This document shows, piece after piece, positions 19,210 to 63,669 of a stretch of DNA of 64,000 nt (position 1 is the stretch's first letter; every line of letters starts with the position of its first letter). Source of the DNA: an uncultured Acidimicrobiales bacterium (GTDB taxonomy: Bacteria; Actinomycetota; Acidimicrobiia; Acidimicrobiales; Ilumatobacteraceae). The stretch is taken from assembly GCA_963791625.1 (NCBI GenBank), contig CAWBTA010000005.1, forward strand, positions 138,508 through 202,507. The letters are read 5' to 3'. Below the pieces are notes generated by a model. That model was not told where the DNA came from. It saw only the letters and a program-made list of their open reading frames with translations, and ran no database searches. The position numbers and the translations under genes are program-made.

Positions 19210-19240
19210 CTCAGCAACGAGCGAATACGAAGCAAACACT

Positions 19241-19317: not shown

Positions 19318-19335
19318 AATTTTTCCAGTGATCAT

Positions 19336-43890: not shown

Positions 43891-43980
43891 TGTCTGTTCG
43901 GCACCCGCCGCCGGTTGCTCCGTCACGATGTGAACGTTAGACGGAATCATCATGTCGGCGGGAGCGCCGATCTTCGGTCT

Positions 43981-45553: not shown

Positions 45554-45627
45554 GCGGGTGTAGTTCAGAGGCAGAACATCAGCTTCCCAAGCTGAGAACG
45601 CGGGTTCGATTCCCGTCACCCGCTCCA
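45554..45627 (+). tRNA. tRNA-Gly(CCC); island integration target
   Basis: GCGGGTGTAGTTCAGAGGCAGAACA...cttCCCaag...GGGTTCGATTCCCGTCACCCGCTCCA; its 3' 43 nt are repeated at 63627-63669. Confidence 0.9.
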
Positions 45628-45729
45628 TTGAATTCCCAGTTCAGAGTGGTACTGCGCTCTCCGAGTCGGCGCTCCGCAAATGCGTCGTCGTGCCAGTTCC
45701 GTGCCACATCCGTGCCATAACGGATACGA

Positions 45730-46910
45730 TCGTCGCCATGGCGTCGCACCAGTTGGGGCAAGCGTGCGCAAGCTTCCGTCGGGGCGATTCCAGGCGCGCT
45801 ACTGCATCGATCTACGTCTGGCACATCGGCGCCGGCGACGTTCCGCACGAAGACGCGAGGCCGACGCGTACCTCGCCTCGCGTGCGCGCCGATATCGACC
45901 GCGGCGTGTGGCTCGACCCGGGCGCCGGCAAGGTGACGGTCGCCGAGTACTCGTCGCGCTGGCTCGCGCGAGCGACCGCAGCTTCGGCCGCGCACCGTCG
46001 AGCTGTACGAGGGTCTGTTGCGCACTCACATCTCCCGGCGCTCGGCGCGACGCGAGATGAGCCAGCTCACGCCGGCCGCGAGTGCGTGAGTGGCGCGCGA
46101 CGATGATCTGCGCGCGGGCAAGCCCGGCGCCTCGACGGTGGCGAAGTGCTACCGACTGCTACACGCAATCTTCGCTACCGCGGTGGAGGACGGCATCGTG
46201 CCGCGCAACCCGTGCATCATCAAGGGCGCGTCGACGAGCGGCCCGCCGAGCGCCCGGTCGCGTCGATAGCCCAGGTGTTCGAGATCGCCGACGCGATCGA
46301 GCCGCGAGTTCCGGGCGATGGTGATGCTCGGCACGTTCTGCGGCCTGCGCCTCGGCGAGATCCGCGCCCTCGGCGTGCGTCATGTCGATCTGCTGCATCG
46401 CACCGTTCGGGTGGAGGAGCAGATACCAGGAGCTCTCGAACGGCGAGCTCGTGCTCGGGCCGCCGAAGTCCGACGCCGGCGTGCGCACGGTCGCGATCCC
46501 GCCGGTGATCATGCCCGAGCTCGAGGCGCACCTCGCGTCGTTCGCGGCGTCGGGGCCGACGGCCTGCTGTTCAGCGACCACGAACGGCGCACCACTGCGT
46601 CGAGCGACGCTTCTACACGGCGTGGAGCCGAGCGATGAAGGCGGTCGGCATCACCGGGCTGCGCTTCCACGACCTCCGCCACACCGGCAACACCCTCGCG
46701 GCCATGACCGGCGCGAGCACGAAGGAACTGATGTCGCGGATGGGCCAGTCGTCGCCACGCGCGGCGCTGATCTACCAGCACGCAACACAGGACCGCGACG
46801 AAGCAATCGCCAACGGCCTGAGTTCGCTCATCGAAGCCCAACGCCCCGACCCCACGCCGCCGACCCCGGTCGTACCGATCAGGATTGGTCTGACTCACGG
46901 ACAGCCTTAA
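45730..46910 (+). pseudogene. Tyrosine recombinase/integrase, broken by at least six frameshifts and an in-frame stop
   Basis: Fragments across three frames read collinearly as an integrase: ASVRKLPSGRFQARY / VRADIDRGVWLDPGAGKVTVAEYSSRWLA / RTVELYEGLLRTHI / GKPGASTVAKCYRLLHAIFATAVEDGIVPRNPCIIKG / RPVASIAQVFEIADAIEPR / MVMLGTFCGLRLGEIRALGVRHVDLLHRTVRVEE / LSNGELVLGPPKSDAGVRTVAIPPVIMPELEAHLASFA / GLRFHDLRHTGNTLAAMTGASTKELMSRMGQSSPRAALIYQH. Confidence 0.7.
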
Positions 46911-46931
46911 CTTGCGAGAGCGACCAGGGCC

Positions 46932-48011
46932 TCATCGACTTCGCTGCGATGTCGTGGATCGCAGGCGGCCCAACGTGCTTCGTCGGCGTCGAGATCGGCG
47001 ATGAATTGGAACCGGGGTCGGACGCGGGCTTCCCAGCCGGGAATGTCGACGGGCCGGGTGAGGGCACGGAAGCGAGTCAGGGTGGAAGTCGCGTTCGTGA
47101 CGTGGCCGCAGTGTGTCGGCCGGATCGAGCGGCTTGTCGCCGCGGTGATCATCGACAACATCTCCCCAGACCTTGAGGACCCACAGTCGACGGACGAGCG
47201 CCTCGTCGATGGATCGATTCGCAAACTGTTGCAAGTCGTACAGATCTCGGCCGAGTGACGTTCGTCGGTAGCGCGCTGTGTTTCTCGGCGCACGTCTTCC
47301 GGCTTCGGCGACAACGGGCACAAGCGGAAGCGCGAAACCGTAGTGACGGTGAATCGGTAGCGGAACAAACCGAGTAGCTCCGGCTCAAGAGCGATAGGCC
47401 GTCGAGCAAACTCGACACTTGCCGCGATCGTGGGCGAGCCCAAGGTCGGATGACTGATCTTCATGTCCCAGTGACGGCCATCGCCACGGCTTGGCTCAAG
47501 GCGATACTGAAACCCACCTTATCTGGTTGCCGTCGATGATGGCGCATACGGCGAGCACGACATCTTCATCAGGTGCCGCTAAGTCGAGGTCGGTTGAAAA
47601 CCGCCCATCATTTCCGAGCCGGCACTTTCGCAAGCTCGTCCCGCCCTTGAACGTGAGGCTGCCGTCATCGAAGACGCCCGCTTCGACGAGCAGGTAGAGA
47701 AGATGGTCTTGCGCGACGTCGAGCAGCGCTGCGTCGTAGGCGTCGGCCCGGCCCATTCCGTGGCGGGCGATCAGCGGGCGCGTGAGCTCGGCCACCGCTA
47801 CGCCTTCCCGATGACAGCTTGCAGCGGAGCAACCAGAGCGTCGATCAAGTTGTACTCGGCAACCCAAACCGGATCGGCGGTGTTGATTGCCGGATGAGCG
47901 AATGGGTTTTTCCGGCTTGGCCTTGTTCGAGCAACCCGTCTTTGAGCAGCGACATGCCCCGCTCGCGTTCACCACCAGCGTGGGAGCAAGTACGCGGCCC
48001 TGTTCGCCCAC
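46932..48011 (-). pseudogene. AbiEii/AbiGii-family nucleotidyltransferase toxin, fragmented
   Basis: N-terminal piece ...YDAALLDVAQDHLLYLLVEAG...LTFKGGTSLRKC...GRFSTDLDL (NTase motif); C-terminal piece in another frame ...RDLYDLQQFANRSIDEALVRRLWVLKVWG... Confidence 0.5.
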
Positions 48012-48735
48012 GCCGCCGTCGGTTGCCCATTGAGCAAGGCAGCCAGCCGGTCGTCATCGCAGTCATAAACGAGACGCGGGTGAGGTGAGCGACGAGATCG
48101 GCCCACGAAGCGAACGAGGACGGACGGATGGCGAGTTGAGCGACAAGAGCTTCGGGACCGAACGCAGGAAGGGCGCTCGCCCAGCGCAACAGATCTAGCT
48201 TGCGATCGATCAAGAACTTCGACGACGGAGCCAGCATTTTGTGCGACTTCGCAGCCGATTCAAATCGCACGATCGACACATACCGGCGAAGCCCGTCGGG
48301 TAGCCGCGTCGACGATGGAATCCAGACACTCACCGGTGAGCCGGGATCGCGATCGAGGTAACCGAGATGCCAAGCAGCCGTCGCGCCGCAGAGCATGAAC
48401 CCGGAATCGGGATCACGAGCACGCCAAGCACGCAGACCAATGTACGGATCGAGGACCTCACCAACACCCGGTGGCACGAACGCCCACACGCCATGAAAGG
48501 GCAGCGTGACCAACCATCCGAGCCGACGCAACTCATGCACGGCCGAATCAACCGTCCGATCCATTCCCACCTCGACGAGCCGTTGCGCCAAGTCATCACG
48601 TGTCACGACAGTCGGCATGTCTCGCGACAGGCTCGGGCCACGAGCCCTGCCGCCCACGTCGGCACGTGTTGATCCGGCCCGGTGGGGCTTTCCAAGATGG
48701 CGACGGTTGAACTCATAGCGGATATTGTACCCCAT
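47845..48735 (-). CDS. AbiEi-family antitoxin/transcriptional regulator; 3' end abnormally long, running into abiEii
   Basis: VVTRDDLAQRLVEVGMDRTVDSAVHELRRLGWLVTLPFHGVWAF (AbiEi_4 wHTH) ...FMLCGATAAWHLGYLD...; the 166-nt overlap with the toxin fragment suggests a further frameshift. Confidence 0.55.
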   Translation of the reverse strand: MGYNIRYEFNRRHLGKPHRAGSTRADVGGRARGPSLSRDMPTVVTRDDLAQRLVEVGMDRTVDSAVHELRRLGWLVTLPFHGVWAFVPPGVGEVLDPYIGLRAWRARDPDSGFMLCGATAAWHLGYLDRDPGSPVSVWIPSSTRLPDGLRRYVSIVRFESAAKSHKMLAPSSKFLIDRKLDLLRWASALPAFGPEALVAQLAIRPSSFASWADLVAHLTRVSFMTAMTTGWLPCSMGNRRRRGRTGPRTCSHAGGERERGMSLLKDGLLEQGQAGKTHSLIRQSTPPIRFGLPSTT

Positions 48736-49220
48736 TGGTAACTATTCCGCACTGAGTTCAACCAGTTCGGCCAACGGCGCTGGTACCCGGCCGCTCCCCA
48801 ATCGGGGGAGAAGACCGGGACCATTTCCTTCCCCAGAGGGGTCGGCAGTGCGACAGTAGCCCTCAGCGGCCTCGAAGGAACCCGAATTTCGAGGTCCAAC
48901 TCCGGAAAGGCCGGGGTTGAAAGTGCCAATTTGGTACTGTTTCTCGTCTGTTGGTGGCCAGCAAGAAAAACTGCCACTGGCAGCCACGGACGTGAACAAG
49001 GCCGTCACCGACGTGACCGGCGACGGGAGCGGCTTGCACTCGGATGCGGCCAGTCCCTGGACATGGGCAGGCCGAGCGGCCTGCGCTGTTATCTCACGCC
49101 GGCAGGGTCCGCAATCGGGCGGCTCGGATGCGACATATCGCCGGTTATCGGGCGGGCGGCTTCCGCTGAACCGTGCCTCGCAATCGCTCGACAGCCTGGC
49201 TCCGCAACGATGAAAGGTGA

Positions 49221-49634
49221 TCAGTCCAGCACGGCCGTCGCCTCGACCTCGACGAGGATGTCGGGCTCCGCAAGAGAAGCGACGCCGATGAGCGTTGTCG
49301 GCTTCACCAGATCACGGCCAAGCCTCGTGGTGGCTCGTCGGATGCCTTCGCCGAGCGCCGCCCCCTTGTCCGGGCCCCAATCGACGATGTAGATCGTCAG
49401 CTTGGCCACATCATCGAACGATCCGCCGACCGCGGCCATGGCCCGATCGACGTTCATGTAAGCCTGCTCGACCTGAGCGGCGAGGTCGCCACCACCGACC
49501 GGGTTGCCATCGGCATCGCGGGCCACCTGGCCAGCGAGAAACACGATCTTCGATCCCTGCGCAATCGACAGCTGACGATAGGACGCAGGTTTGGGGAGCC
49601 CGTCTGGGTTCATCATCGCGACAGTCATGTGCAT
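49221..49634 (-). CDS. RidA/YjgF-family protein
   Basis: ...FLAGQVARDADGNPVGGGDLAAQVEQAYMNVDRAMAAVGGSFDDVAKLTIYIVDW...VEVEATAVLD. Confidence 0.75.
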   Translation of the reverse strand: MHMTVAMMNPDGLPKPASYRQLSIAQGSKIVFLAGQVARDADGNPVGGGDLAAQVEQAYMNVDRAMAAVGGSFDDVAKLTIYIVDWGPDKGAALGEGIRRATTRLGRDLVKPTTLIGVASLAEPDILVEVEATAVLD

Positions 49635-50121
49635 TCCCTCATCGAAGTCGGCACCCGCAACGAAGTATTGCCGGTGTGGGATGCCAGCCAACGTTCATCG
49701 GCGAGCCGCTGGATGGCCGGGCGGACGACGCTGAGGAGGCCCCGGGCTTTGAGGTGGCTCGTCGACCTCCAGGAGCCTGGCGAGGTCGCATCAGCGGCCG
49801 CAGCCGAAGACCCGGCGAGCCACACAGAGTCGGCAACGTCCAATCTCTGGCTGGCGATCTGCTGGGTACACGTCACACATTCCGGCCCTTACGCCGCACT
49901 TGGAGCGCGTGTCGTCGAGACGAGAAGGCCGCCGCAGCCGACGAGCCGTGTCCCGGTTCTGAGGACAGCCAGGACTGTGTGATATTCGTCACACACTGTC
50001 GTGCCGTTGTGTACCGCTGTGAACCGTGGCGTACAACCACGTACCACTGCGTACTGTCTGGTCCGACGGCCCCGGAAACCAGCGTGTTGTCGATTGAATG
50101 ACCGGGTGTAAGTAGGTCGTC

Positions 50122-50393
50122 GTGAGCGCGTTGACGACACCGCTGATGACGATGCTTCGACGGTACTTACCGTCGAAGAGGCCGCCGACGTGCTGCGCAT
50201 CGGCCGCTCGCTGGCGTACCAACTGGCGAACCAGTACCTGTCGTCTCGCGGCATGATCGGCATGCCGGCCTACCGCCTTGGCAACTGCATCCGTGTGCCG
50301 CGCTGGGCGCTGATCGAACTGGCGACGACTGGTCGCGTCGTGCGACTCGCCGAAGCCAACGTGCCGAAGGCGAGCCAGACGAATGCGGCGTGA
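50122..50393 (+). pseudogene. Excisionase/Xis-like HTH DNA-binding protein, likely frameshifted near its 5' end
   Basis: Core LTVEEAADVLRIGRSLAYQLANQYL...IRVPRWALIELATTGRVVRL. The plausible start (VSALTTPLMT at GTG 50122) is in a different frame from the HTH core. Confidence 0.45.
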
Positions 50394-50883
50394 CCCGACC
50401 ATCAGCAACGGGCGGTCCGTCACCGTATTGCCAGGCGCTGTGCACCTTCGTCGTGTCGTCGGGCCGACGGCGTGGGTCGTTCTCGAAACGCTCCTGCACG
50501 ACGCCGAGCCGACGGGCAGCGATGAGTACGTTGCTCGCCGGTCGATCCGCGACCTGGCCGCGGAGATAGGGCTTGCGAAGGACACCGTCGCACGCGCCAT
50601 CCGCGCACTGCGGGAGGTCGGGTTGATCAAGCACGCCCAATGTCGGACCGGCGCTGGCACGTTCGATCCCGGTCGCTACGCGATCAGCTTGCCGAACGAT
50701 CGTCATCACCACGTCCGCCGTCATCACGCCGCGGTCGCGCACCGCGTCTCGTTCGACGCCGCGTGCAACTACCGCGGAACTCTCGCTCGCGTTCGAGGGC
50801 TGAGGGATCTTCTGATGAACGACGCGACTCAAACGATGAAAGCAAAGGACAGACAAGTGCCCGCGCGTTGGAGTGTGTCGTGA
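50383..50883 (+). CDS. Winged-HTH protein of the mobile element (possible replication/transfer regulator)
   Basis: VARRSIRDLAAEIGLAKDTVARAIRALREVGLI; overlaps both neighbouring genes by 4 nt. Confidence 0.45.
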   Translation: MRRDPTISNGRSVTVLPGAVHLRRVVGPTAWVVLETLLHDAEPTGSDEYVARRSIRDLAAEIGLAKDTVARAIRALREVGLIKHAQCRTGAGTFDPGRYAISLPNDRHHHVRRHHAAVAHRVSFDAACNYRGTLARVRGLRDLLMNDATQTMKAKDRQVPARWSVS

Positions 50884-52185
50884 TGTTGCGGGTCACGACG
50901 TTGTACGCCGGTACGGCCGCGACCACGGCGGCCTACTACACCGCGTATCTCACCGAAGGCCGACGGCGAGTTGCCGGGAAAGTGGATGGGTCGGCAGGCC
51001 GCAGCGTTCGGACTGAGTGACACGGTGAGCACCGAGCAGTTAGAGGCGTTACTTAGCGGCCGTGACCCAATCGGTGGGACACCGCTCGGCAACGTGCTGG
51101 TCGATCGCACGAGGGCCGATGGCACGGTCGTGCGCGCCGTCGCCGGTTTCGACGCGACGTTGTCGGCACCGAAGTCGTTGTCGGCGTGGTGGGCGCTTAC
51201 CGGCGATGATCGGCTCGCCGAGTGTCACGACGTCGCGGTCGCGGCCGTGGTGCACCAGCTCGAACGTTTCGGCGCGACTACCCGCGTCAGGCACAGCGGC
51301 GGACGGCTGCACCCCGACACCCAAGGTTTGACGATCGCGGCGTTTCGCCAGTCGACCAGCCGGGCTGATGACCCGCAGCTGCACACGCACCTCGTGATTT
51401 CCAGCAAGGTGCAGACCGACGACGGCCGATGGCTCGCGCTCGACGCCCGCATGTTGAAGGGTCACCAACGCGCCTTCGGTGGGCTCTATCAGAGCGTGCT
51501 GCGCGCCGAACTCACGCACCGGTTCGGCGTAGTGTTCGGCGACATCGTGAACGGCCAGGCCGAGATCGCCGGTGTTCCGGAAGTGCTCATCGACCGATTC
51601 TCGAAACGGACCGCCGAGGTCGACCGTGCCGTTGTCGACAAGCTCGCCTTGTTCTGGAAACGAGAGGGGCGCGATCCAACATCGGTCGAACGAGCGGCGA
51701 TCACTCGCGGCTGTGACCGAAGCGGAAGAAGAACTCGGCGAGGCGCGCCACGCGAGGTACCAAGCGAACATCGAGCTGGGTGGGTCGTAATGTACTCACA
51801 AGACGCGGAGCACGACGCCGACTCGGTGAAGCCGATCAGGGCGTCGGCACTGCCATCGCCAACGTCGATCGTGCCGAATGAAGCAGCAAAGCCGACTGCC
51901 AAAGCGCTCGCAGCCGCCGAGCAAGCTGCTGGGAAAGCAAACGATGCCATCCGACGACACGAGTACGCCGAGCGCTACGGCTACCCGGCCCGCCTCGACA
52001 GTGCGACGCGGATGGTCGAGACCCTCCACACCTGGCACGGCTGGGCCACCGGCCACGAAGTGACAACAGACCGAACAATCGACCTCGCCAACGAGCTAAC
52101 GACTGCGTCGGGTCCGTGTATCGCCAGACTCGCCGAGCCGCTCGAATCTTGGCTCCGTGACCGCGGCACTCGAGTTCTGCTGTGA
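50883..52185 (+). pseudogene. MobF/TrwC-family relaxase (relaxase domain only), frameshifted
   Basis: N-terminus MLRVTTLYAGTAATTAAYYTAYL in one frame; core FDATLSAPKSLSAWWAL...FRQSTSRADDPQLHTHLVISSK...IDRFSKRTAEV in another; no helicase domain follows. Confidence 0.65.
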
Positions 52186-52813
52186 GCTGCGCGCAGCGCC
52201 ACAGCGCCGACCTCGTGCGATCAACTTCGGAATCGATCTCTAAGCGGCGGACCCAGATCCAGCTTGCAGGGAAGGTGCTTCCGAGGGTTTACAGGCGTTC
52301 GATGGCACGTGCGACGCCAATCGGGCGCCACTGCCTGCGCTACTGCATGTCGTTAACGAAATGCTCTGAGATGAAAATACGCTATCCCGATCTGGCACTA
52401 GGAGGTCGAGATCCAGGGGAGTTGCCTGGACCATGGTGCTCTGAGTTCCTGCCTCTCAAAATCGGCCGTGTTTCTGCCAGTGAAACACATGTTCGATCAT
52501 GTGTGAAACAATTCAAGCATCTATCGCATGTGACGCGCCATAGTCTGCTACACTGACTCACATGCAACAAGACATCGGCCTTTCGGTCGTTCAGGACCCG
52601 GCCGATCCCATGGTGCCGTTGGGTGGCCGAGCGAGGACCGCAACCCGGGCCCGGGCTCGATACGCCCTACCAACTGATCGCCTCAAGTTTCAAGCACAAG
52701 TTGATGCGCTACGCTCTTTGCAGCGCTGTCGAAGAACCGGCAGGAGCCGGTAAGTAGTGAGCAGCTTGCTGCCTACTTGAGGGTTGCGGTGAGTACCGCC
52801 GGCCTCAATAAAC

Positions 52814-53539
52814 GTGTTCTTCGTTGAGTCAGGCCTTCTTGAGAAGTCGGCCAAGGGGCGCTACTTACCGACAGACGCTGTGATGGAGTTTCAGCGAAAG
52901 CATTCATTCGATCCGCAACAAGCTGGCGCTGTTCTCAAACCGGTACTGACCCAAACCTGGTACGCAGACGTCGTGCGCCAGCGTTTGCTGTTTGGCCCTG
53001 CTGACGTCGATGACCTAGTCAAGGTGCTGGCCGACGACGCTGGCGCCGATGCTTCATTCAAGTCACAGCTCGAATCCCTGATTGATTGGCTGGCACTAGC
53101 GGACGTGATAGCCGTCGCCGCCGATCGGCAAGTGCGGATCGTAGGCGACGAAGCCCGCGGTACCGTGTCGACTGAGACGACCCCTGCGGTGCCGCCAGTA
53201 GCACGGCTTCTAGCCAGTGACGATGCGGACGTGGCGGGTGCAAGCCCGATACCGAGGACCTCGCGCCGCTCGGGCGAGCAGCCTCCTGCCAACCATTCGT
53301 CTGAGCCCCCGGTCTTGAGCCTGGCTTTCGACCTTCGACTATCGGCATCGGATCTGGCCCGCCTCACAGCCGAACAAATCCGGCAGATATTCGAAGGGGT
53401 CGGCCAAATAGCCGCCATCCGAGCCACGCTCGGCGACTCCCTGAACCTCTCGCGAAATGCGAAAGGAGGTGATTTATATGGACAACTCCAACCAAAACGT
53501 ACTGCCCCTGTTCAAGACAGGGATGCGCTGTTCCGGTAG
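52814..53539 (+). CDS. Hypothetical protein (island cargo)
   Basis: ORF with typical high-GC codon usage; no recognisable motif. A strong SD (AAAGGAGGTGA) plus ATG at 53478 lies inside its 3' end. Confidence 0.35.
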   Translation: MFFVESGLLEKSAKGRYLPTDAVMEFQRKHSFDPQQAGAVLKPVLTQTWYADVVRQRLLFGPADVDDLVKVLADDAGADASFKSQLESLIDWLALADVIAVAADRQVRIVGDEARGTVSTETTPAVPPVARLLASDDADVAGASPIPRTSRRSGEQPPANHSSEPPVLSLAFDLRLSASDLARLTAEQIRQIFEGVGQIAAIRATLGDSLNLSRNAKGGDLYGQLQPKRTAPVQDRDALFR

Positions 53540-54189
53540 GCGGCGTGTACGAGGACCAATTCGGAACGACCTCGTTTCACGACGCCCATCGGACGTTTCC
53601 CCCTTGTATCGGGCGGAAGGGCGAAGCAGCCCTTCGGCGCCTGATCAAGGCAGCCTGACGGTCAGTCAGATACGGGTGGCGCGGGCTGCAACCTGCGCCA
53701 CCCACCCAGCATAGCGCTCTGCCGGGAGAACACCAGCGCCAGCGACGCCATCTCGCGGTAGCCGTTGCACAATCGGCCCGTGTCGAGGTTCGAAACGCCT
53801 ACGGCTGTCGAGGTCCGGCGCTAGCTCGCTGTGGGCTGACTAAGGCGCCTTACGAGACTGTTGGTGGGCCTTTTTGCGGCAGTCGTTGGTTAGGACACTT
53901 TGTCCATCGAGGCAACTAAGTGGTCGGTGGAACCTGTAGAGGGTTCTCATTCCTGGAGCTTCTCGTTGAACCCGTCGGCGTCGTCGATGAGGACGCCTTC
54001 GAGCACCCGGTGGACCAGACCCGCAAAAGCCGACCTCGGCCAAACGATGCCTTTACCTCCGCCATCGTCACAGGATCGAGCGAAATCCACCCGAGTGCAA
54101 CCTACGAACACCGTCCGCATGGTGGGATTTCCTCGCGCCTTCCTTGTCGAACGGGCAATGTTCCCGGCAAACGCCGAAATCAGTCTGCG

Positions 54190-55345
54190 ATGTCAATGCC
54201 AATCTCGGCGATCAATAATGCTTCGAGCGGCAAACCTTGTGGCGATGAGCGAGACCGGGACGCCGGCGACATGTTCCGTCTCTTCGACAAACCTCATCGT
54301 CGCTGAGGTCAACTGATCGAACCGCCGAGCGCTTCGGTTGCTGGCGTCGATGTAATCGGCGAACGTCAACGCAATGTCTGTGAGCGAGTTGAGCTCGCTC
54401 GATCGGCGCTAGCAACGCCCAGTCAAACTCGGCGACGTGTTCTCGGCTTGCCGCTGACGGAGCCTTTCTCCATCTGTTCGAGCTCACCGCGATCGAGACC
54501 CGAACGGTCGGCGATCTCGCCAAAAGTGATCTGGGCAGACATCGGTCCCGACGTGCCATCTGTTCCATCTTGAACGCGGATCGGGTAGGTACGGAAGACG
54601 CCGATAACCTTCCGCACCCGTCGGTGGGCCGATGCCGGCTTCGGCGAGGCAACCCGACGATGTCGTGTCCCTTGAGGTGACATGGGGATACGGTCCGTGC
54701 AGGAGGCTTAGCGCTGTCCCCTGGGTTCCTTCCTGGAGGAGGATCTTCTGCCCGGCCCGATAGGCCTCGTCGAGAACCTCGCCGCTCGGGCGGAGGGGTA
54801 CGGGGCGCAGTTCAGGCATGTCGGCAGCGCGCCTCATCGTAGGCAGTCGCCGAACCCCTCGATCCAGTTGGCCGCCTCGGTTCAAAATCCGTTTGTGCGG
54901 TCGTGGCACCAACGCCCTTTCCCGTTGATCCGATTCGGGCCACGATGCCCTGTTCCAGCTCCCGGTCCCAGGCTTCAATGATGATAGCGTTCGGGGTCGA
55001 TGGCGAGCCGATCAGACTCGACGCTACTATCGGCGATTTCGCGAAGGAGAACATCCAGATCCAGCACGGCACCAGGACCAATCACAATCCTGGCGCGTTT
55101 GATTCGCCCGCGTGCCGGATGGAAGCGATCGATGTGTGAACCCCGACCCAGGGGCACTTTATGTCCGGCGTTAAGGCCCGCCGACCCGCACGAGAATGTC
55201 GTATTCAGGCGCGAGGAAGAACGCAATGTTTCCCTTGCCTTCGCTTCCCGTACTGACCTCCCACCAGTAGGTCGACGAGCTGCTCACAACCACGCGGCAA
55301 CAACCCCACTCGTGCCGCACATCGCGTTACGATTGTCTGCCCGCG
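54190..55345 (-). pseudogene. Divergent adenylosuccinate-synthetase-like (PurA/PurZ-like) gene, multiply frameshifted
   Basis: Collinear fragments: VGGQYGSEGKGN / LNAGHKV...IGPGAVLDLDVLLREI / [14 protein letters not shown] / [24 protein letters not shown]...GIGP / [12 protein letters not shown]...GKPRTRRR / ELNSLTDIALTFADYID. About 30% identity to the host purA at 22820-24094. Confidence 0.6.
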
Positions 55346-55393
55346 CTCCGAGCGGTACGTGTCGATTACTACGTCTGCCTCGGTACCAAGTTC

Positions 55394-55870
55394 CTAGTCA
55401 CCTGACTCCGTCGGATCGGCTTGCACCTGGGTGTACGAGCCGAGCTCCGCAATGCCGCTCGCACCCCGCTGGTTCTCCACATACCGGTCGGCAAGAACGC
55501 CCACGGGTGGAGTGAGGTGGACATGAACTACGTCGTGGCCAAAGGCCTCGTGGATATGACGCAGTTGGTTGGGGATGCGGATCGAGTCGACCACGATTAA
55601 GCCATCAAAGACCGAGCCGCTCGGTGTTTCGCAGCAAGGGCATCCGCAACCCATCGGCCGTCGGTTCGCCGATCAAGGTCCTCACCGTACTGCTGTAGGG
55701 CTTGGCGCTCTTGCAGAAGAATCACATTATCGTTTCGTGCGTGAGCGTTCATAAAGCGAACGACGAGTGCTGACGTGATCAGCACCGAACTTCACGGCGA
55801 GTGCCTGTGCGAGTTCCGATTTGCCAGGACGCGACAGGCCCTGACAGGACAACTATGCGCGGCCTCTATG
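55394..55870 (-). pseudogene. Small P-loop (nucleotide/nucleoside) kinase, frameshifted
   Basis: Walker A GLSRPGKSELAQALAVKFGADHVSTR, then in other frames ...LIVVDSIRIPNQLRHIHEAFGHDVVHVHLTPPVGVLADRYVE... Confidence 0.45.
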
Positions 55871-56601
55871 TCGACTCCCTCACTGTCGAGTTCGTCGGCT
55901 CACGGGCACCGCGGCAACGTGTAGACCGTCACACCCACGCCATGTCGGCATAGCTCTTCATCGACGACATCGGCGACAAGTTCCCGATACCCTTAACACT
56001 TGACCCGTTCCGATTCTCGGCATGTGTACGGTGGCATCCAGCCGCAAGGCCGCCCGACGAACCTCACGAAGACCGTCGCGGAAGCCCCCCTGGTACCGTA
56101 TGATGCTGCCTCATCGCTCGCCCCGAATCCTTCTTGGGCGACGACGCTCGCCACGAAGACGCTCTCATCAGCACTCAGGATGTGCGCGTTTCCGAGTTGC
56201 AGATTCGTGGGCGATGCAATTGTCCAGTTGTGGAATGCGTCAGCGTTACGCGTTTGTACTGAGTTGACAGTTGACCCGCAAACCCTCTCTTGCCCCAGGC
56301 GCGCGCTCGATCATCGACGACGTGCACAATAAGTCGGGCGTGGCCGTCAGCGGGAGGCTCCGATGCGTTGCCAGTGACATACGCCAGGTGCGTGGAGTCG
56401 TCCGCGTTTCTGTTCAAAAGAGGATGTACGAGGGCGAGCACACGGGGATATCGGCGACCCGGATACGCCGGGGTGCCGACTGCCTGTACGTGGAATGCCC
56501 CAGGTTTTCCCCAAGATCATCAACGGACTTCGACGTGAAACCTAGCCGCCGTGCAGGAGGCGAGCGAGCGAGAGTCGATCTGTTCGCCACGCTCGACCGG
56601 C

Positions 56602-57273
56602 TCACTCCAGGTTCTTGAGGCCGTCGCATAGTGTCGAGCGTGGTAAGGCAGATGGTTCATCGACGCGATCCGAGACACGCGAGGTAGCGATGCACGCGAC
56701 CTGATGTGTGGTCCCAGAAACCACGCGCCGCAGTATCGCCTCGGTCGAAACATCGAACTGCGCCCGCATCTGCATGATCACATCGATGTCGAGCGGCTCG
56801 GAATCGATGTCGTCGATTGGAAGGGCGATGTTCGGCATGAGAAGTTCCGAGGCAGCGATGTTGCAAAGCAGTTCGAGTTGCCAGTCGTCGCTGTCCTCAT
56901 CGGGTACGGCTCCGAGCCCCGTCCGGTAGCGAACAGCCGACGCCGCGTCGGCAAAGAACGAGTGCGCTATCTCGTGCGCTATCGAGAACCGAAGGCGCCC
57001 TCGTGGCCGCCGAGGGTTGTACTCGATGGTTGAACCGCTGGACCCAGCCACTATTCGCGGGTCGGTGACCGTGTCAAGAGGTACGACGTCAAGTCCAAGC
57101 AGCCGAGCCAGCTGGAGCGGATCGAAGGGTGGCCCGGTCCAGCCGTCTGCTGCGGCTCGAAACACAGCGTCTCGTGCTCGGTCGACTATCGCAGCAATCG
57201 GATCCTTCCCCTGCGCGAACTCGCGAACAGATTCGTTGGTCCACTGATCGCCCATTCGCGCAAGCCTACGCAT
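56602..57273 (-). CDS. ImmA/IrrE-family metallo-endopeptidase
   Basis: HExxH motif SIAHEIAHSFF within a COG2856-type domain. Confidence 0.8.
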   Translation of the reverse strand: MRRLARMGDQWTNESVREFAQGKDPIAAIVDRARDAVFRAAADGWTGPPFDPLQLARLLGLDVVPLDTVTDPRIVAGSSGSTIEYNPRRPRGRLRFSIAHEIAHSFFADAASAVRYRTGLGAVPDEDSDDWQLELLCNIAASELLMPNIALPIDDIDSEPLDIDVIMQMRAQFDVSTEAILRRVVSGTTHQVACIATSRVSDRVDEPSALPRSTLCDGLKNLE

Positions 57274-57391
57274 TGTGGTAGCTCAATCACTGCCAGGCGG
57301 GACGCCACCCATTGCATTATTCGGTTTGGTGGCACCCGAAGACCTGAATCGATTTGCCTGCGGACCGCAGCCTTCCGGTTACTGTCAGTCC

Positions 57392-57957
57392 ATGGACGTC
57401 ACCGATCTAGAGATGCTACATCCGCGACTGTTCCATATGGCAGACGCGAACAGTTGGGACGGGATACGGACACACGGCCTGTTGTCCACATCTCGCCGCC
57501 CGATCTCTTTGAGGTCGAGGAACCGCGGCGCAGCTCGATCGAATCCGATCGTCGACCGGAAGCTGTTCAGCTCAGCCACGCGAGACACGGTGTTGTGAAA
57601 ATTCGGGACAACAAGCCGATGACAACTCCGGCGCTGGAGAAGTGTCTCCAAGACGGCATGACACCAACCGATTGGTATCGAAATCTCACCGGCGTTCTTT
57701 TCCGGCTGACGGCCGAGCGAGTCGAGACTCTTCTTGACGCACGCACAACCGCGGCCGCCCCCACCTCGTACTCACGCTCGACACGTCTTCGCTGCTCCAA
57801 GCCCACCTTCCTCGGATATCGCTTAGCCCGATCAACAGCGGTGCGACCCTGTACAAGCCTCCACCACGAGGAGCAGCGACGTTTCGCTCCGTCGCTGCCT
57901 ATCCATGGGACGAGGACCGGCGGCGGCGTGCCGCCGAGGACGCTATTGTCGAACTGA
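57392..57957 (+). pseudogene. Unknown frameshifted gene divergent from immA (N-terminus loosely DarT/DUF4433-like)
   Basis: MDVTDLEMLHPRLFHMADANSWDGIRTHGLLSTSR then a frame switch to ...TDWYRNLTGVLFRLTAERVETLL... Confidence 0.25.
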
Positions 57958-58155
57958 CAGTCGACGAGGGGGTCACGACATTATGCAATCTCATCGCTGC
58001 GCACTTGCGCAACCCGGACGGTTCGGTCGAGGACTTAGGATGAACACCCAACACGCTCGTCCGTACGATCGCCCAATGTTCGACGTGCCCGGCTCGTTCG
58101 TCGCGCCGCCGTCCATCGGCGCCGAAGTCCAACATCACGAATCCACGACCATCTG

Positions 58156-58560
58156 ATGGCCGTTGCTCCGCGGACGGACGAGGTGGGGCTCCAGCAACTC
58201 GTGTTTGAGTTTCACGTCGCGTTCGGGCTCCCCCGAGCAGACCGACCAACGATTGACGTCCCCGATGACCTTGCTGCGCTGCGGAACGCTCTGCTCAAGG
58301 AAGAGAGTGCCGAGTTGATTACAGCTTGCGAGCAGCGGACCTAGTAGCGATTGCTGACGGAATTGCCGACGTTCTCTACGTTGTCTTCGGGACTGCAGTG
58401 ACGTACGGATTGGATGCTACCAGCCTCGTTCGAGAGGTTCACCGGTCAAACATGTCCAAGCTTGGTCCTGACGGACTTCCTATACTCCGTGAAGACGGCA
58501 AGGTCATCAAGGGCCGAACTATTCTCGGCCAGACTTCAATTCGCTTCTGTTCGACACCTC
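58156..58560 (+). pseudogene. MazG-like / HisE-like all-alpha NTP pyrophosphohydrolase, interrupted by a stop/frameshift
   Basis: LQQLVFEFHVAFGLPRADRPT...LRNALLKEESAELITA | DLVAIADGIADVLYVVFGTAVTYGLD...VHRSNMSKLGPDG..REDGKVIKG across two frames. Confidence 0.55.
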
Positions 58561-58595
58561 GCACTAATTGTCAATCGCGGACCAGCCGAAACACC

Positions 58596-58663
58596 CGTTA
58601 TCCCTGGTCACGAAAACACGGCAAGCCGAATTCCCAAGCCGGCGAACGCCGGTCCGTGTGCCC
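58596..58663 (+). repeat. Degenerate internal copy of the att/tRNA-3' region (relic att of a tandem insertion)
   Basis: GGTCACGAAAAC-CG--AAG---AATTCCCAAGC-----AACGC-GGT-CG....CCCGCTCC aligns with the 63599-63669 attR context, including 30 bp of flanking sequence, with a deletion inside the T-arm. Confidence 0.5.
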
Positions 58664-59129
58664 GCTCCCATTGTCTTCCCTGGCCAAAGGGAATTTTTGT
58701 GGGCCGCTGATGAGTCGCCCGATCATGGCCGTAGACGGGAACGGCTCGCAGTCGGCGCAGCTACGATGAAAGTGTGACAGTTGACCTTGACACGCTGCCT
58801 TCTCAGCTTGCCCGCACCATCCGGGCGGCACGTCTGCGCCGTGGCGTGATACTCCGAAACCGTGCAGCTCGACCGGGCCTGACCCGATCATAGCGAATGC
58901 GTGCCGGTCTAAGTTGGCCGGCCGACCCAACTGGTTACTTCTCGACAAGCTCACTCCACCCTGAAGCCCGAACAGTGCCCTAAAGGCGTAGACCTGATTA
59001 CCTGAAGATCCCTGGCACTTTCCTGCTTCACGCCTGGCCAAACCGTTCTCTGTATTCGACCTCTCGAGCGGCGTTTCCAGTGTCGGCTGAGCGACCGAAT
59101 AGCGCCAAGTACGCGAAGGGCCAAGGGCA

Positions 59130-59416
59130 CCCTCCAGCAGTAGCGCAAGATTGCAGCGCAGCTTGTGAATGGCGACCGCCAGAATGAAGCCAAAGTCGAT
59201 GTTCACGTCGTCGTAGCACATGAACTTGAAGAACGAGTGGACGGTGTTCAGCAGAAGAAGGGGCAGTACGGCTATTGCAGAACGGTCGCCGAGGTAGGCG
59301 AACGCTCCGACAGCACAGCTCAGGAGAACAAGCATCCACCGAATCATCTCGCTGCCCTCGACTCGCCGTGAGAGGAAGAAGCAACTGGCTGCCATGCCTA
59401 GGAGGCTGCTGAGCAA
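59130..59416 (-). CDS. Small 2-TM membrane protein in low-GC cargo
   Basis: MIRWMLVLLSCAVGAFAYLGDRSAIAVLPLLLLNTVHSFF...; the annotated ORF continues into the att relic, which is unlikely to be coding. Confidence 0.3.
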
Positions 59417-59538
59417 TCGTCTTTGGCCGACGGGAATGGTGGCTGACGGTCGATTTGGTCGGTGGGGCAGTTCAGCCTGATCTTGTGCGGCTCGACGGTG
59501 GAAACGGTCGCGGCCTGATGACTCGCTGTCGAAGCGGT

Positions 59539-61245
59539 GGCCAGCGCTCGGTCGGGTGCCTCGTGAGCGTGCTGTGGGGTGGTTCAGGCCCGGTTCAGGC
59601 CGTGGCGATGATCCAACCGCCGTCGTGGGTGAGGCCGAGGTTGAGGAGTCGTTTCAGATTCACTGCGGCGCAGCGTTGCGACCACGCGATCCGGTTCTTG
59701 GTGATTCCTCGGTATCTCAAGCGTCGGTGGTTGTCTTTGACGAGCCATGCGATGGTCCGCTCTATCATCGGGCGATGCTGGCGATACACCGTGTCGAACC
59801 CGACCGTTCGGGCCTGGAGACGGGCGTCCGCGAGGAGTTGATGGTGTTCGTGCAGGCTGATCGAACGTCCGCCTTTCGCGGTGGTGCATGACTTGCGGAG
59901 CGGGCATGTGCGGCAGTGTTTCCCGAACGTCGCCGTCCTGGCCGGGCTGATCGTGACCGTGATGTTGGCCGGGCACGTGACCGTCCCCGAGGTCAGATCA
60001 ATGTTGAAATCATCGAGAGTGAACCCGCCCTCAACGGCAGGTTGGAGCGGACGGGGCTTGATGACCGGAGCCATCTGCTTCTTCGCGAGGTGGTCGCGGA
60101 GTTCGCCTGAGGAATACGCGCTGTCACCGAGCACTTCGGTCCCGGCCGGTTCACCATCGAGCAGTCCGGGTGCGGCTTGGGTGTCGCCGTCGTTGCCGGG
60201 GCCGAGGTCGCAACCGGTGATCAGACCGGTGTCGGGTTCGGCTGCGACGTGAGCTTTATAACCGTCACGCTGCGAACGGCGGGTCTTGTGCGCATGGCGT
60301 GTCTCCGGGTCGACCGTGGAAATCGTGCGGTCTTTCGCAGTGCCACGACTGATCCGCCACCGGCCGGGCCGGTCACCCGGCTCCACATCCTGGCCGGCAA
60401 CCAAAGCCAACAGGGCGACCGCGTCTTCCTGCACATCAGACAAAACGAGTCCGCCGTCTTGGAGATCCTCAACCGCGCCCAGCAACGTCAACGCGTCATC
60501 GACGAGTTCGGTAACGAGCCGTTCGCGGTCGACCGGATCGGCCCAATCACACGACGGACGGCCAGGCTCGAGATTGTGATGCCGCACCCGAACACCTGCG
60601 ATTTCGGGGATCAGTTTGCGGACCTTTCGGATCTGCGCTGCGAGCATCGTGACCGTGTCTTGGCGGGCGACCGTGTCGTCTAACACCGTCGAATCAAGAG
60701 CGCGTCGATGCTTACCTTTCAACACGCCAGTCTCAGCGATCACCGCACGCACGGCGTCGAAAATGCGTTGCGGAGCCTCGGACTGGCGGAGCTTGTTGCG
60801 CCACAACACCAGCACTGTCGAGTGGAACGCCTCATCCATCAACGACAAACCCGTCGCCATCTTCCAACGGATATCGGTCTCCAAACGTCCGACCGCTTCA
60901 CGGTCAGAGAGGCCTTCCAACGCCTGCAAGACCATCACGGACGCGATCACATCCGCCGGGACCGACGGGCGGCCGCGCTTCACGGGGAACAGATCAGCAA
61001 ACATCTCATCCGGGAACAACCGGTGCCGATGCTCAGCCAACAACGCGTACACAGTGCCCGGTTTCAGGAGATGGCCACACACATCCTTCGCGTCGAAAAA
61101 GGCACGATCGGAAGTCGAAGATCCCTGCATCCCCCCATTCTTTTCGATCCACGCCAACTTCGCGAATCCGACGACCAAGCAGGATTGCTCAGCAGTCTCC
61201 TAGTTGAACTACGGCAAATTGGACATTGGCGGACGATCGCTGGCC
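59539..61245 (-). mobile_element. IS1182-family insertion sequence (approximate ends)
   Basis: Imperfect terminal inverted repeats GGCCAGCGCTCG (59539-59550) and CGATCGCTGGCC (61234-61245) flank the transposase. Confidence 0.4.
59595..61178 (-). CDS. IS1182-family (IS5 superfamily) transposase, intact
   Basis: 527 aa with the N-terminal HTH region typical of IS1182 (...PADVIASVMVLQALEGLSDREAV...) and a DDE domain. Confidence 0.85.
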   Translation of the reverse strand: MVVGFAKLAWIEKNGGMQGSSTSDRAFFDAKDVCGHLLKPGTVYALLAEHRHRLFPDEMFADLFPVKRGRPSVPADVIASVMVLQALEGLSDREAVGRLETDIRWKMATGLSLMDEAFHSTVLVLWRNKLRQSEAPQRIFDAVRAVIAETGVLKGKHRRALDSTVLDDTVARQDTVTMLAAQIRKVRKLIPEIAGVRVRHHNLEPGRPSCDWADPVDRERLVTELVDDALTLLGAVEDLQDGGLVLSDVQEDAVALLALVAGQDVEPGDRPGRWRISRGTAKDRTISTVDPETRHAHKTRRSQRDGYKAHVAAEPDTGLITGCDLGPGNDGDTQAAPGLLDGEPAGTEVLGDSAYSSGELRDHLAKKQMAPVIKPRPLQPAVEGGFTLDDFNIDLTSGTVTCPANITVTISPARTATFGKHCRTCPLRKSCTTAKGGRSISLHEHHQLLADARLQARTVGFDTVYRQHRPMIERTIAWLVKDNHRRLRYRGITKNRIAWSQRCAAVNLKRLLNLGLTHDGGWIIATA

Positions 61246-62148
61246 GCCCAATTGTAGTGTTGTCGAGAAGAGCGTGGCTGAGACGAGAGCACAAGCGAAG
61301 ATCAGCGGTATTGGCGAACCGATTGGCTGGACCGGTCTAAGAGTGCGTTCCTTTAGTCGGTCGAGAGGCGATTCCGAACCACGGCGGCCGACAACAGCTG
61401 CGGTGAGATAGGCAACGTGGGGTTTGGATGCTTTTGCTGCTTCGAAGGTCTCGAATGAATACCCCTCAAGAGTCCAAGTCATGCCGACAAAGAGGATGCC
61501 GAGCCAATAGCCAAAAGACGTGCCAGCGATGGTAGGAATCGTCCCGACGCCTCCGAGGTGCAAGCCTGTGCCCAAACGAAGACCGTATCCGATTCCAACC
61601 AAACCGAGCGTGACCCAAGTTAGACGATCGGTTGGTCGGCCCGCTGCGCCGACCTCGCGGCTGTATTCTCGGACTGACTCATAGGCGACCGTTGATGCAG
61701 CCACCACCGCCGCAGCGACGATAAGGGCCCCGCGGAGGTCGCCGTCCTTCAGCGCAATCCAGCTCACTGGGAGCGCCAGTACGCGCCAACATAGGGCGAT
61801 CAGACCGGAGCGCACGGCCGCCGTACTCGGATTTAGTCTGCCGTGAGCCCGACTACTCGGGTGATGCTTGTCGTTCTCTGATTGCCTCAAGTCATTAATG
61901 GCGTAGCGGGCTTGGTAAAGCACGAACTCCAAGATCAGCGTAAAGAACGCGATTCTCCGGAAGCGAACATGGCCGTCGCTCAAAACAGACGCCAAGACGA
62001 ACGCCAGAGCGTGAATGGGTGCCTTGCTCAGTACTTCCAGTGGACGGGGAAGCAAAATGTAGCGATAAAGGAGCCTGTCGGCTGCTGGGAATCCAGCGCG
62101 AGTTCGATTGAGTTCATTCGGAAGCCGCTTGACGAGGCGTTGCCACAT
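61189..62148 (-). CDS. Polytopic membrane protein (low-GC cargo); 3' end overlaps the IS terminus
   Basis: ~8 predicted TM; GC content clearly below that of flanking chromosome. Confidence 0.4.
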   Translation of the reverse strand: MWQRLVKRLPNELNRTRAGFPAADRLLYRYILLPRPLEVLSKAPIHALAFVLASVLSDGHVRFRRIAFFTLILEFVLYQARYAINDLRQSENDKHHPSSRAHGRLNPSTAAVRSGLIALCWRVLALPVSWIALKDGDLRGALIVAAAVVAASTVAYESVREYSREVGAAGRPTDRLTWVTLGLVGIGYGLRLGTGLHLGGVGTIPTIAGTSFGYWLGILFVGMTWTLEGYSFETFEAAKASKPHVAYLTAAVVGRRGSESPLDRLKERTLRPVQPIGSPIPLIFACALVSATLFSTTLQLGGQRSSANVQFAVVQLGDC

Positions 62149-62788
62149 TCGAAGACTTCGAATATATCCGGATCGATATGATAAGAATGACGGCCATCAA
62201 GCCATACAAGCCTCCTGCTGCGAGTCGTACTACGGGTTGTCGATCAGGTTGACGGCAAGCACACCGACTCCGATGGCGATGCTGGCAGCCGGGAGCCACT
62301 GCAGGTGGGAGAGCGCACGGTGCCGCACCGACAGCGATCTTCCGCTGCTTAATGGTTGCAGAATGTGTACCAGTCCGAGGTGTAACCGCATCGTCCGGAA
62401 CATGGACGAGCGTGCGGATTTCCGAGGCCACTGATCGCAAGTATCGGCTACGCATCGTGGCAACAGTTCCCTGGACGAGGAGCACGGCCAAGACAAGGAC
62501 GGGAAGGGTGGGAACGAATGCCATGACGTACGGCGAAATCGAGGAACAGTCAGTCTTTGTCGACCCAACCTTCAGCCAATCGAAGAGAGGATGCTTCGGG
62601 CTGCATACCTGTGTCAAGAGCGCTGCGATAACGGAGAGGACGGTAATGCCGACGCCCATTACCGCCGCATTCGAGGACAGAAAGTAGCGCTCGTCGTTCG
62701 CTGCCGACTCGTAATCTCGCAGAAGCAGGTCGAGACGCTCGCGATCGTCCGCCGAGGAACTCGCTTGTCCCATCACTGACACCGGCAC
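62114..62788 (-). CDS. Membrane protein (low-GC cargo), C-terminal portion uncertain
   Basis: N-terminal half has convincing TM segments; the rest may be spurious extension. Confidence 0.3.
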   Translation of the reverse strand: MPVSVMGQASSSADDRERLDLLLRDYESAANDERYFLSSNAAVMGVGITVLSVIAALLTQVCSPKHPLFDWLKVGSTKTDCSSISPYVMAFVPTLPVLVLAVLLVQGTVATMRSRYLRSVASEIRTLVHVPDDAVTPRTGTHSATIKQRKIAVGAAPCALPPAVAPGCQHRHRSRCACRQPDRQPVVRLAAGGLYGLMAVILIISIRIYSKSSNVATPRQAASE

Positions 62789-63626
62789 CCCTGTCTGTCT
62801 GTTGAATTCGAACTATAGGCAACAAGCGGTGAGGCGACGACCGATATGAGTCAGATTACTCATGTTAACGGCAGGAAAGTTGCACCGATTCATATCTTTG
62901 TATCAACCGGTCCGGAAGAGTTGAGGTGAGCGTCACCGCAGGCTGCAACTGCCGGGGTGGCCAAGAAATTTGAGACTGGTTGTTGTCCATCGATGGAGTG
63001 TTGTCCCGAACGCTCGGACTGGAGATTCGTGGCGCTTTCGGCGATAGGGCCCCTCGCCACCGCCAGGCTCGTAAGCAGCGCCAGATCGCAGCGACCGCTT
63101 TCGTCAAGGGGCGATGGCCGAAGGGTGACGGCATTGGTGACGCGTCTGCTGGTGCAACATGATCGAGAGCCGTCAGGCCGACCCGCGTCGCCTTGCCTGT
63201 TGGCACAAGGCGGATGCGTCGGCGAGGTGGCTCGCGGTCCTGATTGGTCATGGCGGCTCCGTGTCCGACGGCCAGACTTGCTGTGGACCTAGTTCGGGTC
63301 GGGTGGGCGATGCCACCCATCCCTTTCACGCCACCGTCAAACCGACCGCATTCACGACTCAGTTCCACACCGAAGTGTCAAGCACCCAGCGGACCGCGGC
63401 CCAAAACGGTCAACCACGTACGGGAGCCTTAGTGTCAGGCATGTAACGGAAATGCACACAGAACTGCAACACATCAGCTGAAACGCCAGGGTACGTTCGC
63501 GTGCCATCTGCGTGCCACAACGGAGCGAGACGGGCCAATGTCGGGCGGACGGGGCAACACGAGGAAACATGGCTTGACCAGGCCAAACGCCCGTTTCGCC
63601 AGGTCACGAAAACGCGAAAAGGCAAA

Positions 63627-63669
63627 TTCCCAAGCTGAGAACGCGGGTTCGATTCCCGTCACCCGCTCC
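63627..63669 (+). repeat. attR: direct repeat of the tRNA-Gly 3' half (43 bp, identical to 45584-45626)
   Basis: TTCCCAAGCTGAGAACGCGGGTTCGATTCCCGTCACCCGCTCC present at both sites. Confidence 0.85.

Follow-up and report, generated by a model that had tools for sequence, protein, structure and literature searches.

The 64,000-nt window analysed here, a stretch of contig CAWBTA010000005.1 from an uncultured bacterium of the Ilumatobacteraceae, carries an island that is inserted at the 3' end of a tRNA-Gly(CCC) gene and occupies 45.6-63.6 kb. We find that this island belongs to a widespread family of Acidimicrobiia integrative mobilizable elements (IMEs) of ~15 kb, and that it is composite and structurally damaged. 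Roughly 40 small frameshifts make its genes look dead. Our explanation of the whole, to which we assign a probability of about 0.7, is that of a real composite, rearranged island overlaid with insertion and deletion (indel) errors that were left uncorrected in the deposited consensus; we infer this technical origin with the same degree of confidence, and most probably the conspicuous pseudogenisation has no biological basis. The first-pass annotation had instead argued against sequencing noise and for a domesticated element in true decay. That proposal is opposed by the conserved residues, by the ratio of non-synonymous to synonymous change (dN/dS) in the Xis gene, by the indel spectrum and by the patchiness of the indels; furthermore, 'domesticated' is unsupported, since we identified no retained function that would benefit the host.

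Frame-corrected genes of the island

The recognisable domains in 45.6-63.6 kb are mostly split across frames. This was determined by six-frame Pfam scans with masked stops, used in place of a GC3 frame plot, which was dropped because the frames are not separable at ~62% G+C. We mapped the frameshifts with a purpose-written, frameshift-aware dynamic-programming aligner of protein to DNA (plain tblastn was dropped for this purpose, because it read through the junctions at low identity). The multiple breaks that had been claimed for the integrase, AbiEii, Xis-like and TrwC genes are indeed present in the sequence when these are aligned in this way to intact homologs. The genes in question are:

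45745-46904, + strand: tyrosine integrase of ~385 aa; 16 frameshifts as deposited and no in-frame stop; adjoins the tRNA-proximal attachment (att) site
46910-47795, - strand: AbiEii nucleotidyltransferase toxin, detected as a fragment of Pfam PF08843 and by frameshift-aware alignment
47801-48846, - strand: AbiEi antitoxin (Pfam PF09407)
50122-50390, + strand: Xis-like HTH_17 protein of 90 aa (Pfam PF12728); one T missing at ~50143
50383-50800, + strand: winged-helix backbone gene of 139 aa; one +1 insertion at ~50700
50883-52185, + strand: remnant of a MobF/TrwC relaxase (Pfam PF08751, E=5.5e-63); one +1 insertion at ~50953

The deposited integrase is not an open reading frame (ORF): its 16 frameshifts (13 of +1, 1 of +2, 3 of -1) fall at the same sites with 12 intact references. 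Examples of these indels are a T at 45811, an A at 45825 and AT at 46106-46107. DNA alignment to three intact relatives that are indel-free among themselves (L016, L012 and L011) reproduces the single-base insertions, and also reveals such insertions in the non-coding left arm of the element. A stitched integrase query retrieved thousands of intact ~385-aa integrases by BLASTP, the best of which are 83-85% identical; in its frame-corrected form, the window's integrase is 89% identical to intact 385-aa integrases. The corrected protein keeps 88 of 88 invariant positions, and 157 of 157 positions that are >=90% conserved in 59 intact homologs; intact family members deviate at 0-5 of those conserved positions, and the corrected window integrase at none. 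For comparison, mutation accumulation in Mycobacterium smegmatis without MutSL gave 856 substitutions versus 207 small indels, i.e., 4.1 per indel (PMC4938668). At that ratio, the 16 indels of the integrase imply ~66 substitutions and ~19 changes at conserved sites, and the probability of finding zero is 4e-9; even with one substitution per indel, the absence of any conserved-site change has P=0.009.

The other genes show the same absence of a relaxed-selection signature. Restoration of a single base yields a 90-aa Xis that is verbatim P0514, a protein present in two independent short-read assemblies (L022 and L023, MEGAHIT contigs with a related element whose DNA is 93-94% identical and which is not from the same strain). 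The repaired gene differs from that of L022 at 12 codons: every one of these differences is synonymous and at the third position, with 0 non-synonymous. Removal of one base from the winged-helix gene gives exactly 139 aa, 125/139 of which equal the residues of the L011/L018 gene. The five frameshifts of AbiEii (4 of them insertions) are accompanied by no stop; corrected, the toxin is 95% identical to the intact homolog P0244, and it deviates at conserved sites no more than P0244 itself does. AbiEi has six insertion-type frame changes relative to the ORF in L003, and its deposited product of 296 aa (47845-48735) has an altered C-terminus. The conserved residues of the relaxase domain are also retained, and an in-frame stop codon is found in none of the frame-corrected genes.

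Exact copies of the 296-aa AbiEi product and of a 399-aa TrwC product are on record once, both on the 347,274-bp source contig (NCBI/ENA). Bearing in mind that these truncated products are in the protein index, the errors would lie in the public record and would not have arisen in this window. The repaired 139-aa and 433-aa products have no exact match in the protein collection.

Sequence context and distribution of the indels

The indels comprise 24 insertions and 8 deletions. Of 19 single-base insertions, just 1 is within a homopolymer run of >=3, as compared to the 79% of small indels that occur in simple repeats during M. smegmatis mutation accumulation (P=1e-11; PMC4938668). The inserted base equals its neighbour in 8/19 cases, where random insertion predicts 9.3 +/- 2.2, and no restriction site or common motif was seen at the insertion sites after removal of the inserted base. 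The distribution is patchy: indel density is 1.5% in the integrase gene and 0.3% from xis to TrwC (over-dispersed, p=0.02), and the final 295 nt of the integrase gene are indel-free (P=0.003). Part of this final segment, 46818-46880 (~the last 63 nt of the gene), is 100% identical to L016 and L012, as against ~85% for the rest of the gene, which suggests either recombination between elements or a consensus derived from mixed reads.

The flanking chromosome serves as a control of comparable divergence. Long ORFs tile 1-45.5 kb gaplessly. When 12 kb of the left flank were aligned to orthologous DNA of L003 and L001 (87-93% identity), there were zero frame-breaking indels within genes; such indels as exist are confined to gene ends or intergenic DNA. 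In addition, 1650 of 1651 nt agree with an independent Logan assembly of the same strain, which is present in run ERR11593397; this is a 1.65-kb contig that was reached via its exact dCTP deaminase product and covers flank only. The window stops 330 bp beyond the right repeat, so the intactness of the chromosome is judged on the left side only: what had been described as an intact flanking chromosome is borne out there by ORF tiling and by the 12-kb alignment, the right side being represented by those 330 bp.

Anatomy of a composite island

The boundaries, arms and internal junction of the island are as follows:

45554-45627, + strand: tRNA-Gly(CCC), called by ARAGORN and matched to Rfam RF00005 (69.9 bits); its 3' 43 nt are the attL core
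45584-45626, + strand: attL core, the 3' 43 nt of the tRNA
45628-45745, + strand: the element's left arm, in which CGTGCCA is directly repeated three times at 45686-45719; conserved with the left arms of L016 and L018
58580-58705, + strand: internal relic junction, made up of ~50 nt of family right arm, a decayed att core at 58630-58669 and ~40 nt of family left arm
63494-63626, + strand: the element's right arm, in which CGTGCCA occurs twice; it contains a GACCAGG...CCAGGTC hairpin and matches the right end of L018
63627-63669, + strand: attR core, a perfect copy of the 3' 43 nt of the tRNA

A direct repeat of the tRNA end bounds the insert, with 43/43 nt equal between 45584-45626 and 63627-63669; ARAGORN, Rfam and a repeat search thereby confirm both the tRNA-Gly(CCC) island and the perfect 43-bp att duplication that had been reported. 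Both arms contain direct CGTGCCA repeats that are kept in relatives, and the motif CGTGCCAYA is over-represented in the left arm and near attR; these repeats are predicted arm-type binding sites for the integrase. The tRNA 3' end together with the first 15-16 nt of the island (ATTGAATTCCCAG...) is common to L020 (1031-1086) and L021 (103-158), contigs of the Joint Genome Institute (JGI) metagenomes Ga0105048/Ga0105047 that were found by scanning with a 26-mer across the attL junction; they are otherwise unrelated, only 56 nt being common. This sharing reflects either the same family in distant hosts, or a conserved tRNA trailer with a crossover region of >43 bp.

The internal junction is well separated from chance similarity. 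The alignment of 58580-58669 with 63576-63664 has a local score of 45, as against 15.2 +/- 1.3 and at most 19 in 100 shuffles, and 15 for the runner-up among real matches. To the left of the relic core, ~50 nt match the family's right arm, including a conserved GACCAGG...CCTGGTC hairpin; to its right, ~40 nt match the left arm of L016/L018, and do so better than the window's own left arm. The core itself is identical at ~30/43 positions, with indels. The degenerate third copy that the first-pass annotation had described is therefore present, and the context of ~30 bp that had been given for it needs to be replaced by ~50 nt on the left plus ~40 nt on the right. Since the relic carries a family right arm and a family left arm, the earlier suggestion of two tandem integrations is supported: the relic is a real junction of element ends, of the kind that two related elements placed head to tail in a tandem, accretion-type array would leave.

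No integrase, Xis or relaxase was found in the distal unit, 58.7-63.6 kb. In L003, an independent metagenome-assembled genome (MAG), the xis and winged-helix genes are joined, within ~90 nt, to a segment that is 89% identical to 58755-58891. This linkage indicates that the DNA just to the right of the relic belongs to the elements of this lineage and is not an invention of assembly. Two features make up most of the distal unit:

58598-62788, - strand: long ORF with no family match, in DNA of low G+C, cut by an insertion sequence (IS) and by one frame change near 62114-62148
59398-61203, - strand: IS of 1806 bp that has CTAG at each end; its terminal inverted repeats are imperfect and 36 nt long

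The IS has the attributes expected of such an element, namely a DDE transposase, terminal inverted repeats and a target duplication. Its transposase ORF (59595-61178, ~1.6 kb) is uninterrupted and matches the Pfam families DUF772, DDE_Tnp_1 and DDE_Tnp_1_6; from this domain architecture and the transposase length, we take it to be IS1182/IS5-like. If the IS is removed and one CTAG is kept, the reading frame of the long ORF is restored across the insertion site. The relaxase of the proximal unit is a further case of structural change: its residues 1-287 (the relaxase domain) are fused to ~924-1072, and the helicase core (~288-923, ~1.9 kb) is missing at 51.70-51.75 kb, no further relaxase remnant being found downstream of this copy. 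The relaxase helicase deletion, the IS insertion and the integrase-less distal unit constitute real structural damage to the island.

The element family and its integration hotspot

The gene upstream of the tRNA encodes a DAGK/YegS-type kinase, 89-91% identical homologs of which occur in three Actinomycetota/Acidimicrobiia MAGs with flanks that are 87-93% identical to window DNA. All three have foreign DNA after the same tRNA, which points to an integration hotspot; when we sought an empty site for comparison, inserted DNA was found after this tRNA in every one of the relatives L001, L002, L003, L016 and L018, none of which matches the 330-bp right flank of the window. Two of these insertions are integrase-less remnants. 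That of L003 (10966-20867) contains pentapeptide-repeat genes, an intact 347-aa AbiEi, a second AbiEii-like pair and the xis/winged-helix genes. That of L001 (4069-13969), an independent short-read MAG, has an AbiEii which is N-terminally truncated, 61% identical and interrupted by one frameshift, with the look of an ordinary pseudogene. No attR copy lies within 10 kb in either L003 or L001. The tRNA-Gly locus is a long-lived hotspot, with real decay in these two relatives.

The family backbone consists of a tyrosine integrase beside the tRNA, variable cargo, Xis, the 139-aa winged-helix gene and a MobF/TrwC relaxase of ~1090 aa; the relaxase family is large in Acidimicrobiia, and its intact relatives are likewise ~1090 aa. 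A complete element is found in L018, a JGI contig, adjoining the same DAGK and tRNA-Gly locus as the window's island: identical 43-bp cores at 568 and 15742 bound 15.2 kb. Its gene order is integrase (407 aa), DUF1016, NERD, two unknowns, HTH_17 Xis (90 aa), the 139-aa gene, a 1092-aa TrwC/MobF relaxase, a 351-aa gene and attR. The window matches this element in three places, that is, at the left end with the integrase (85%), at 49961-51709 (xis, the 139-aa gene and TrwC residues 1-287; 85.6%), and over the last 176 nt up to and including attR (86%, gapless). Six-frame Pfam scans found no type IV secretion system (T4SS), VirB4, VirD4 or FtsK-like families in the island, nor did the L018 element contain any. 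With a relaxase and no mating-pore or FtsK-like genes, the family is best described as IMEs. A self-transmissible integrative and conjugative element (ICE), or its actinomycete counterpart (AICE), would encode a T4SS, or an FtsK/SpoIIIE-like TraB plus Rep, for which the same scans of the island were negative. An IME has a functional relaxase; from the window's copy the helicase core is gone.

Origin of the frameshifts

In the order of integration events that we infer, related IMEs would have integrated site-specifically at the 3' end of tRNA-Gly(CCC) and formed the composite island, in which a proximal unit (45.6-58.6 kb) meets the integrase-less distal unit at a decayed att site, as in tandem accretion. 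The entry of the IS into the distal unit and the loss of the relaxase's helicase core, both of them real, would be later events. The indel errors would be limited to this region, which varies between strains and is hard to assemble, so that polishing or the filling of gaps may have failed in it. The island is 85-94% identical to co-occurring elements, and so it is the kind of place at which these procedures do fail. Long-read or gap-filled assemblies are known to retain indel errors, which are usually recognised by the ORFs that they interrupt (PMC9426551); this IDEEL-type signature is seen here in the single-base splits, and in repaired genes that match full-length homologs.

Several observations count against consensus errors. 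Our case departs from the signature just mentioned in that the errors would be confined to one 13-kb island; for errors in the island alone, beside 45 kb of flawless flank, a special cause is needed, candidates for which are a filled gap, polishing that failed, or coverage that was low or mixed. If this were a plain short-read assembly, it would be hard to account technically for random insertions of 1 nt. No independent assembly of the exact island was found in metagenome scans with a 30-mer over two insertions and with the attL 26-mer, or in exact-product look-ups. Actinobacteria that lack MutSL have an insertion-biased indel spectrum (2.1:1; PMC4938668), against which the insertion bias of the window, taken alone, is weakly abnormal (P=0.04). 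Decay does occur at this locus, given the truly degraded remnants in L001 and L003, and a few of the indels, such as the loss of TT to T in xis, could be real.

The first-pass interpretation, in which an old, inactivated and domesticated resident has gathered its frameshifts by neutral decay over evolutionary time, is to us the least probable of the alternatives. It would account for the many broken genes beside a clean flank, for lesions of a natural type (a helicase core deleted, an IS inserted and an internal att decayed) and for the degraded remnants at the same tRNA in related genomes. A relative-rate test on integrase DNA with L011 as outgroup also appears to favour it, since the window branch is richer in changes at first and second codon positions (22:23:58) than that of the intact pair (19:5:90), but misalignment near 22 indels inflates the excess, as does the position of the window itself, which proved to be the outgroup among the three sequences compared. 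In conserved residues, Xis synonymy, insertion context and patchiness, the findings are the reverse of those expected under neutral decay: there are no nonsense codons, 0/157 conserved integrase positions are changed where at least ~19 changes are expected, Xis has dN=0 over 12 substitutions, and the indels lie outside simple repeats, with a spectrum unlike natural slippage and a density that is uneven within one gene when an even spread is expected. Nor would a perfect 43-bp attR be anticipated after long drift, when the flanks of relatives differ by ~10%. A real and very recent burst of indel-only mutagenesis on the element (for example Ku/LigD end joining with untemplated bases, or a mutagen) would reconcile real frameshifts with perfect residue conservation, and it fits both the untemplated look of the single-base insertions and their confinement to foreign DNA. 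Mycobacterial LigD-dependent end joining adds single nucleotides. We nevertheless regard such a burst as unlikely: ~40 independent events would be needed in ~13 kb, with none in 45 kb of flank, while the transposase, the last 295 nt of the integrase gene and 48.1-48.6 kb would have to escape by chance; moreover, a single site-specific nuclease is improbable given that the insertion sites have no common motif. We know of no such targeted indel process, and of no precedent for one. Yet more doubtful, in fact very unlikely, is a variant in which the insertions are real and stem from a process aimed at integrated foreign DNA, by breakage and untemplated end-filling or by host frameshift silencing, that spares the chromosome and acts too fast for substitutions to follow.

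We also considered that related elements of strains living together were assembled into a chimera, so that the arrangement as a whole, tandem junction and relaxase deletion included, would exist in no single genome. Related elements of 85-94% identity do co-occur in the same kinds of samples, the region has clear consensus problems, identity to relatives varies by segment, and the integrase stretch 46818-46880 is identical to L016. Three observations make this reading quite unlikely. Many substitutions separate the relic core from the tRNA, unlike in a join of two clean sequences; L003 too links the xis/winged-helix genes to the segment right of the relic, at 89% identity; and the IS has proper inverted repeats and restores an ORF on its removal, in an island whose outer att cores are perfect and correctly oriented.

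Other features of the island and the window

Further features of the proximal unit are:

48785-48847, strand not assigned: conserved block of 63 nt, also found at L012 2165-2227, L018 3047-3109 and L003 ~14520-14582
49221-49628, - strand: RidA/L-PSP cargo gene of 135 aa (Pfam PF01042); the source contig has an exact copy of the product on record
54625-54786, - strand: adenylosuccinate synthetase-like fragment (Pfam PF00709, profile positions 198-250 of 416)
56602-57273, - strand: IrrE/ImmA-like M78 metallopeptidase ORF of 223 aa (Pfam PF06114) with a HEIAH motif
57386-58010, + strand: DUF7002 gene, matched by Pfam PF22531 over three frames
58207-58451, + strand: MazG-like (PRA-PH) gene, matched by Pfam PF01503 in two frames, with at least one frameshift

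The 63-nt block is 89-92% identical across related elements while the adjoining cargo DNA is unrelated, and in those elements it always sits where the integrase module gives way to the variable cargo. RNAalifold folds it into two hairpins with 20 pairs, 3 of which are compensatory among 4 sequences; there was no Rfam match to the block. Possible roles are those of a regulatory RNA, a terminator or a site at which cargo is exchanged by recombination. Among the cargo genes, alignment of DUF7002 to five references shows two -1 frameshifts (~57501 and ~57749) and no stops, and no lesion was detected in the RidA/L-PSP gene. The adenylosuccinate synthetase-like fragment is unusual cargo; the surrounding ORFs of 52.2-56.6 kb are otherwise without family matches.

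G+C is ~0.62 throughout the window, with a sole dip at 61-63 kb (0.56-0.58). Upstream of the tRNA by 1.6 kb there is a second variable slot: a 411-aa ORF (42718-43953, - strand) with no Pfam family is precisely missing from L001 and L003, where flank homology resumes on both sides, and L011 has a 408-aa gene, also without a family, at the same place. That this 1.2-kb gene might be an IS was considered and rejected, since it matches no Pfam family and lacks terminal inverted repeats, and L011 has a gene of similar size. Elsewhere, ARAGORN called a 95-nt tRNA-Ile(GAT) at 16143-16237 (- strand), with its anticodon at position 32; the call is unusually long and falls within a + strand ORF of 487 aa (15697-17160), both of which suggest a false positive. 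A cluster of tRNAs for Glu (TTC), Asp (GTC) and Phe (GAA) at 19137-19411 (+ strand) is unrelated to the island.

Implications

Our analysis illustrates how localised consensus errors can mimic the 'wholesale pseudogenisation' of a mobile element, and it offers three checks against real decay that need no reads: retention of conserved residues, the synonymous/non-synonymous ratio against relatives and the kind of sequence in which the indels lie. Such regions would inflate the numbers of pseudogenes and of 'dead' mobile elements that are counted in draft genomes and MAGs. If the integrase and Xis are truly intact, the element may still excise, contrary to what had been expected of it. Should a burst of indel-only mutagenesis confined to the element prove real, that would be remarkable. 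Independently of these points, the work delimits a widespread, uncharacterised tRNA-Gly-targeting IME family in Acidimicrobiia, with a conserved backbone and probable arm sites, for which the intact 15.2-kb element of L018 is a reference member. It also identifies tRNA-Gly as a recurrent integration hotspot with tandem accretion; the element is otherwise of an ordinary kind.

Comparison with known systems

The cargo resembles AbiE type IV toxin-antitoxin (abortive infection) systems in its adjacent, same-strand genes with AbiEi_1 and AbiEii domains; it differs in that both genes carry frame changes as deposited. The island as a whole resembles tRNA-targeting IMEs: it has a tyrosine integrase beside the tRNA 3' end, a direct repeat of that end, Xis, a MobF/TrwC relaxase and variable cargo. 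Unlike theirs, the window's relaxase lacks its helicase core, and the mobilizable class is a prediction from gene content. To our knowledge, such elements have not been characterised experimentally in this uncultured Acidimicrobiia host lineage.

Finally, the arrangement can be compared to accretion of ICEs with cis-mobilizable elements (CIMEs), as described for the ICESt1/ICESt3 arrays of Streptococcus thermophilus. It departs from these in that the integrase is in the tRNA-proximal unit, and in that the internal att is badly decayed (~30/43, with indels) and hence unlikely to recombine. The correspondence lies in the three att copies in direct orientation, the internal one between a right arm and a left arm, and in the presence of one unit without recombination or transfer genes.

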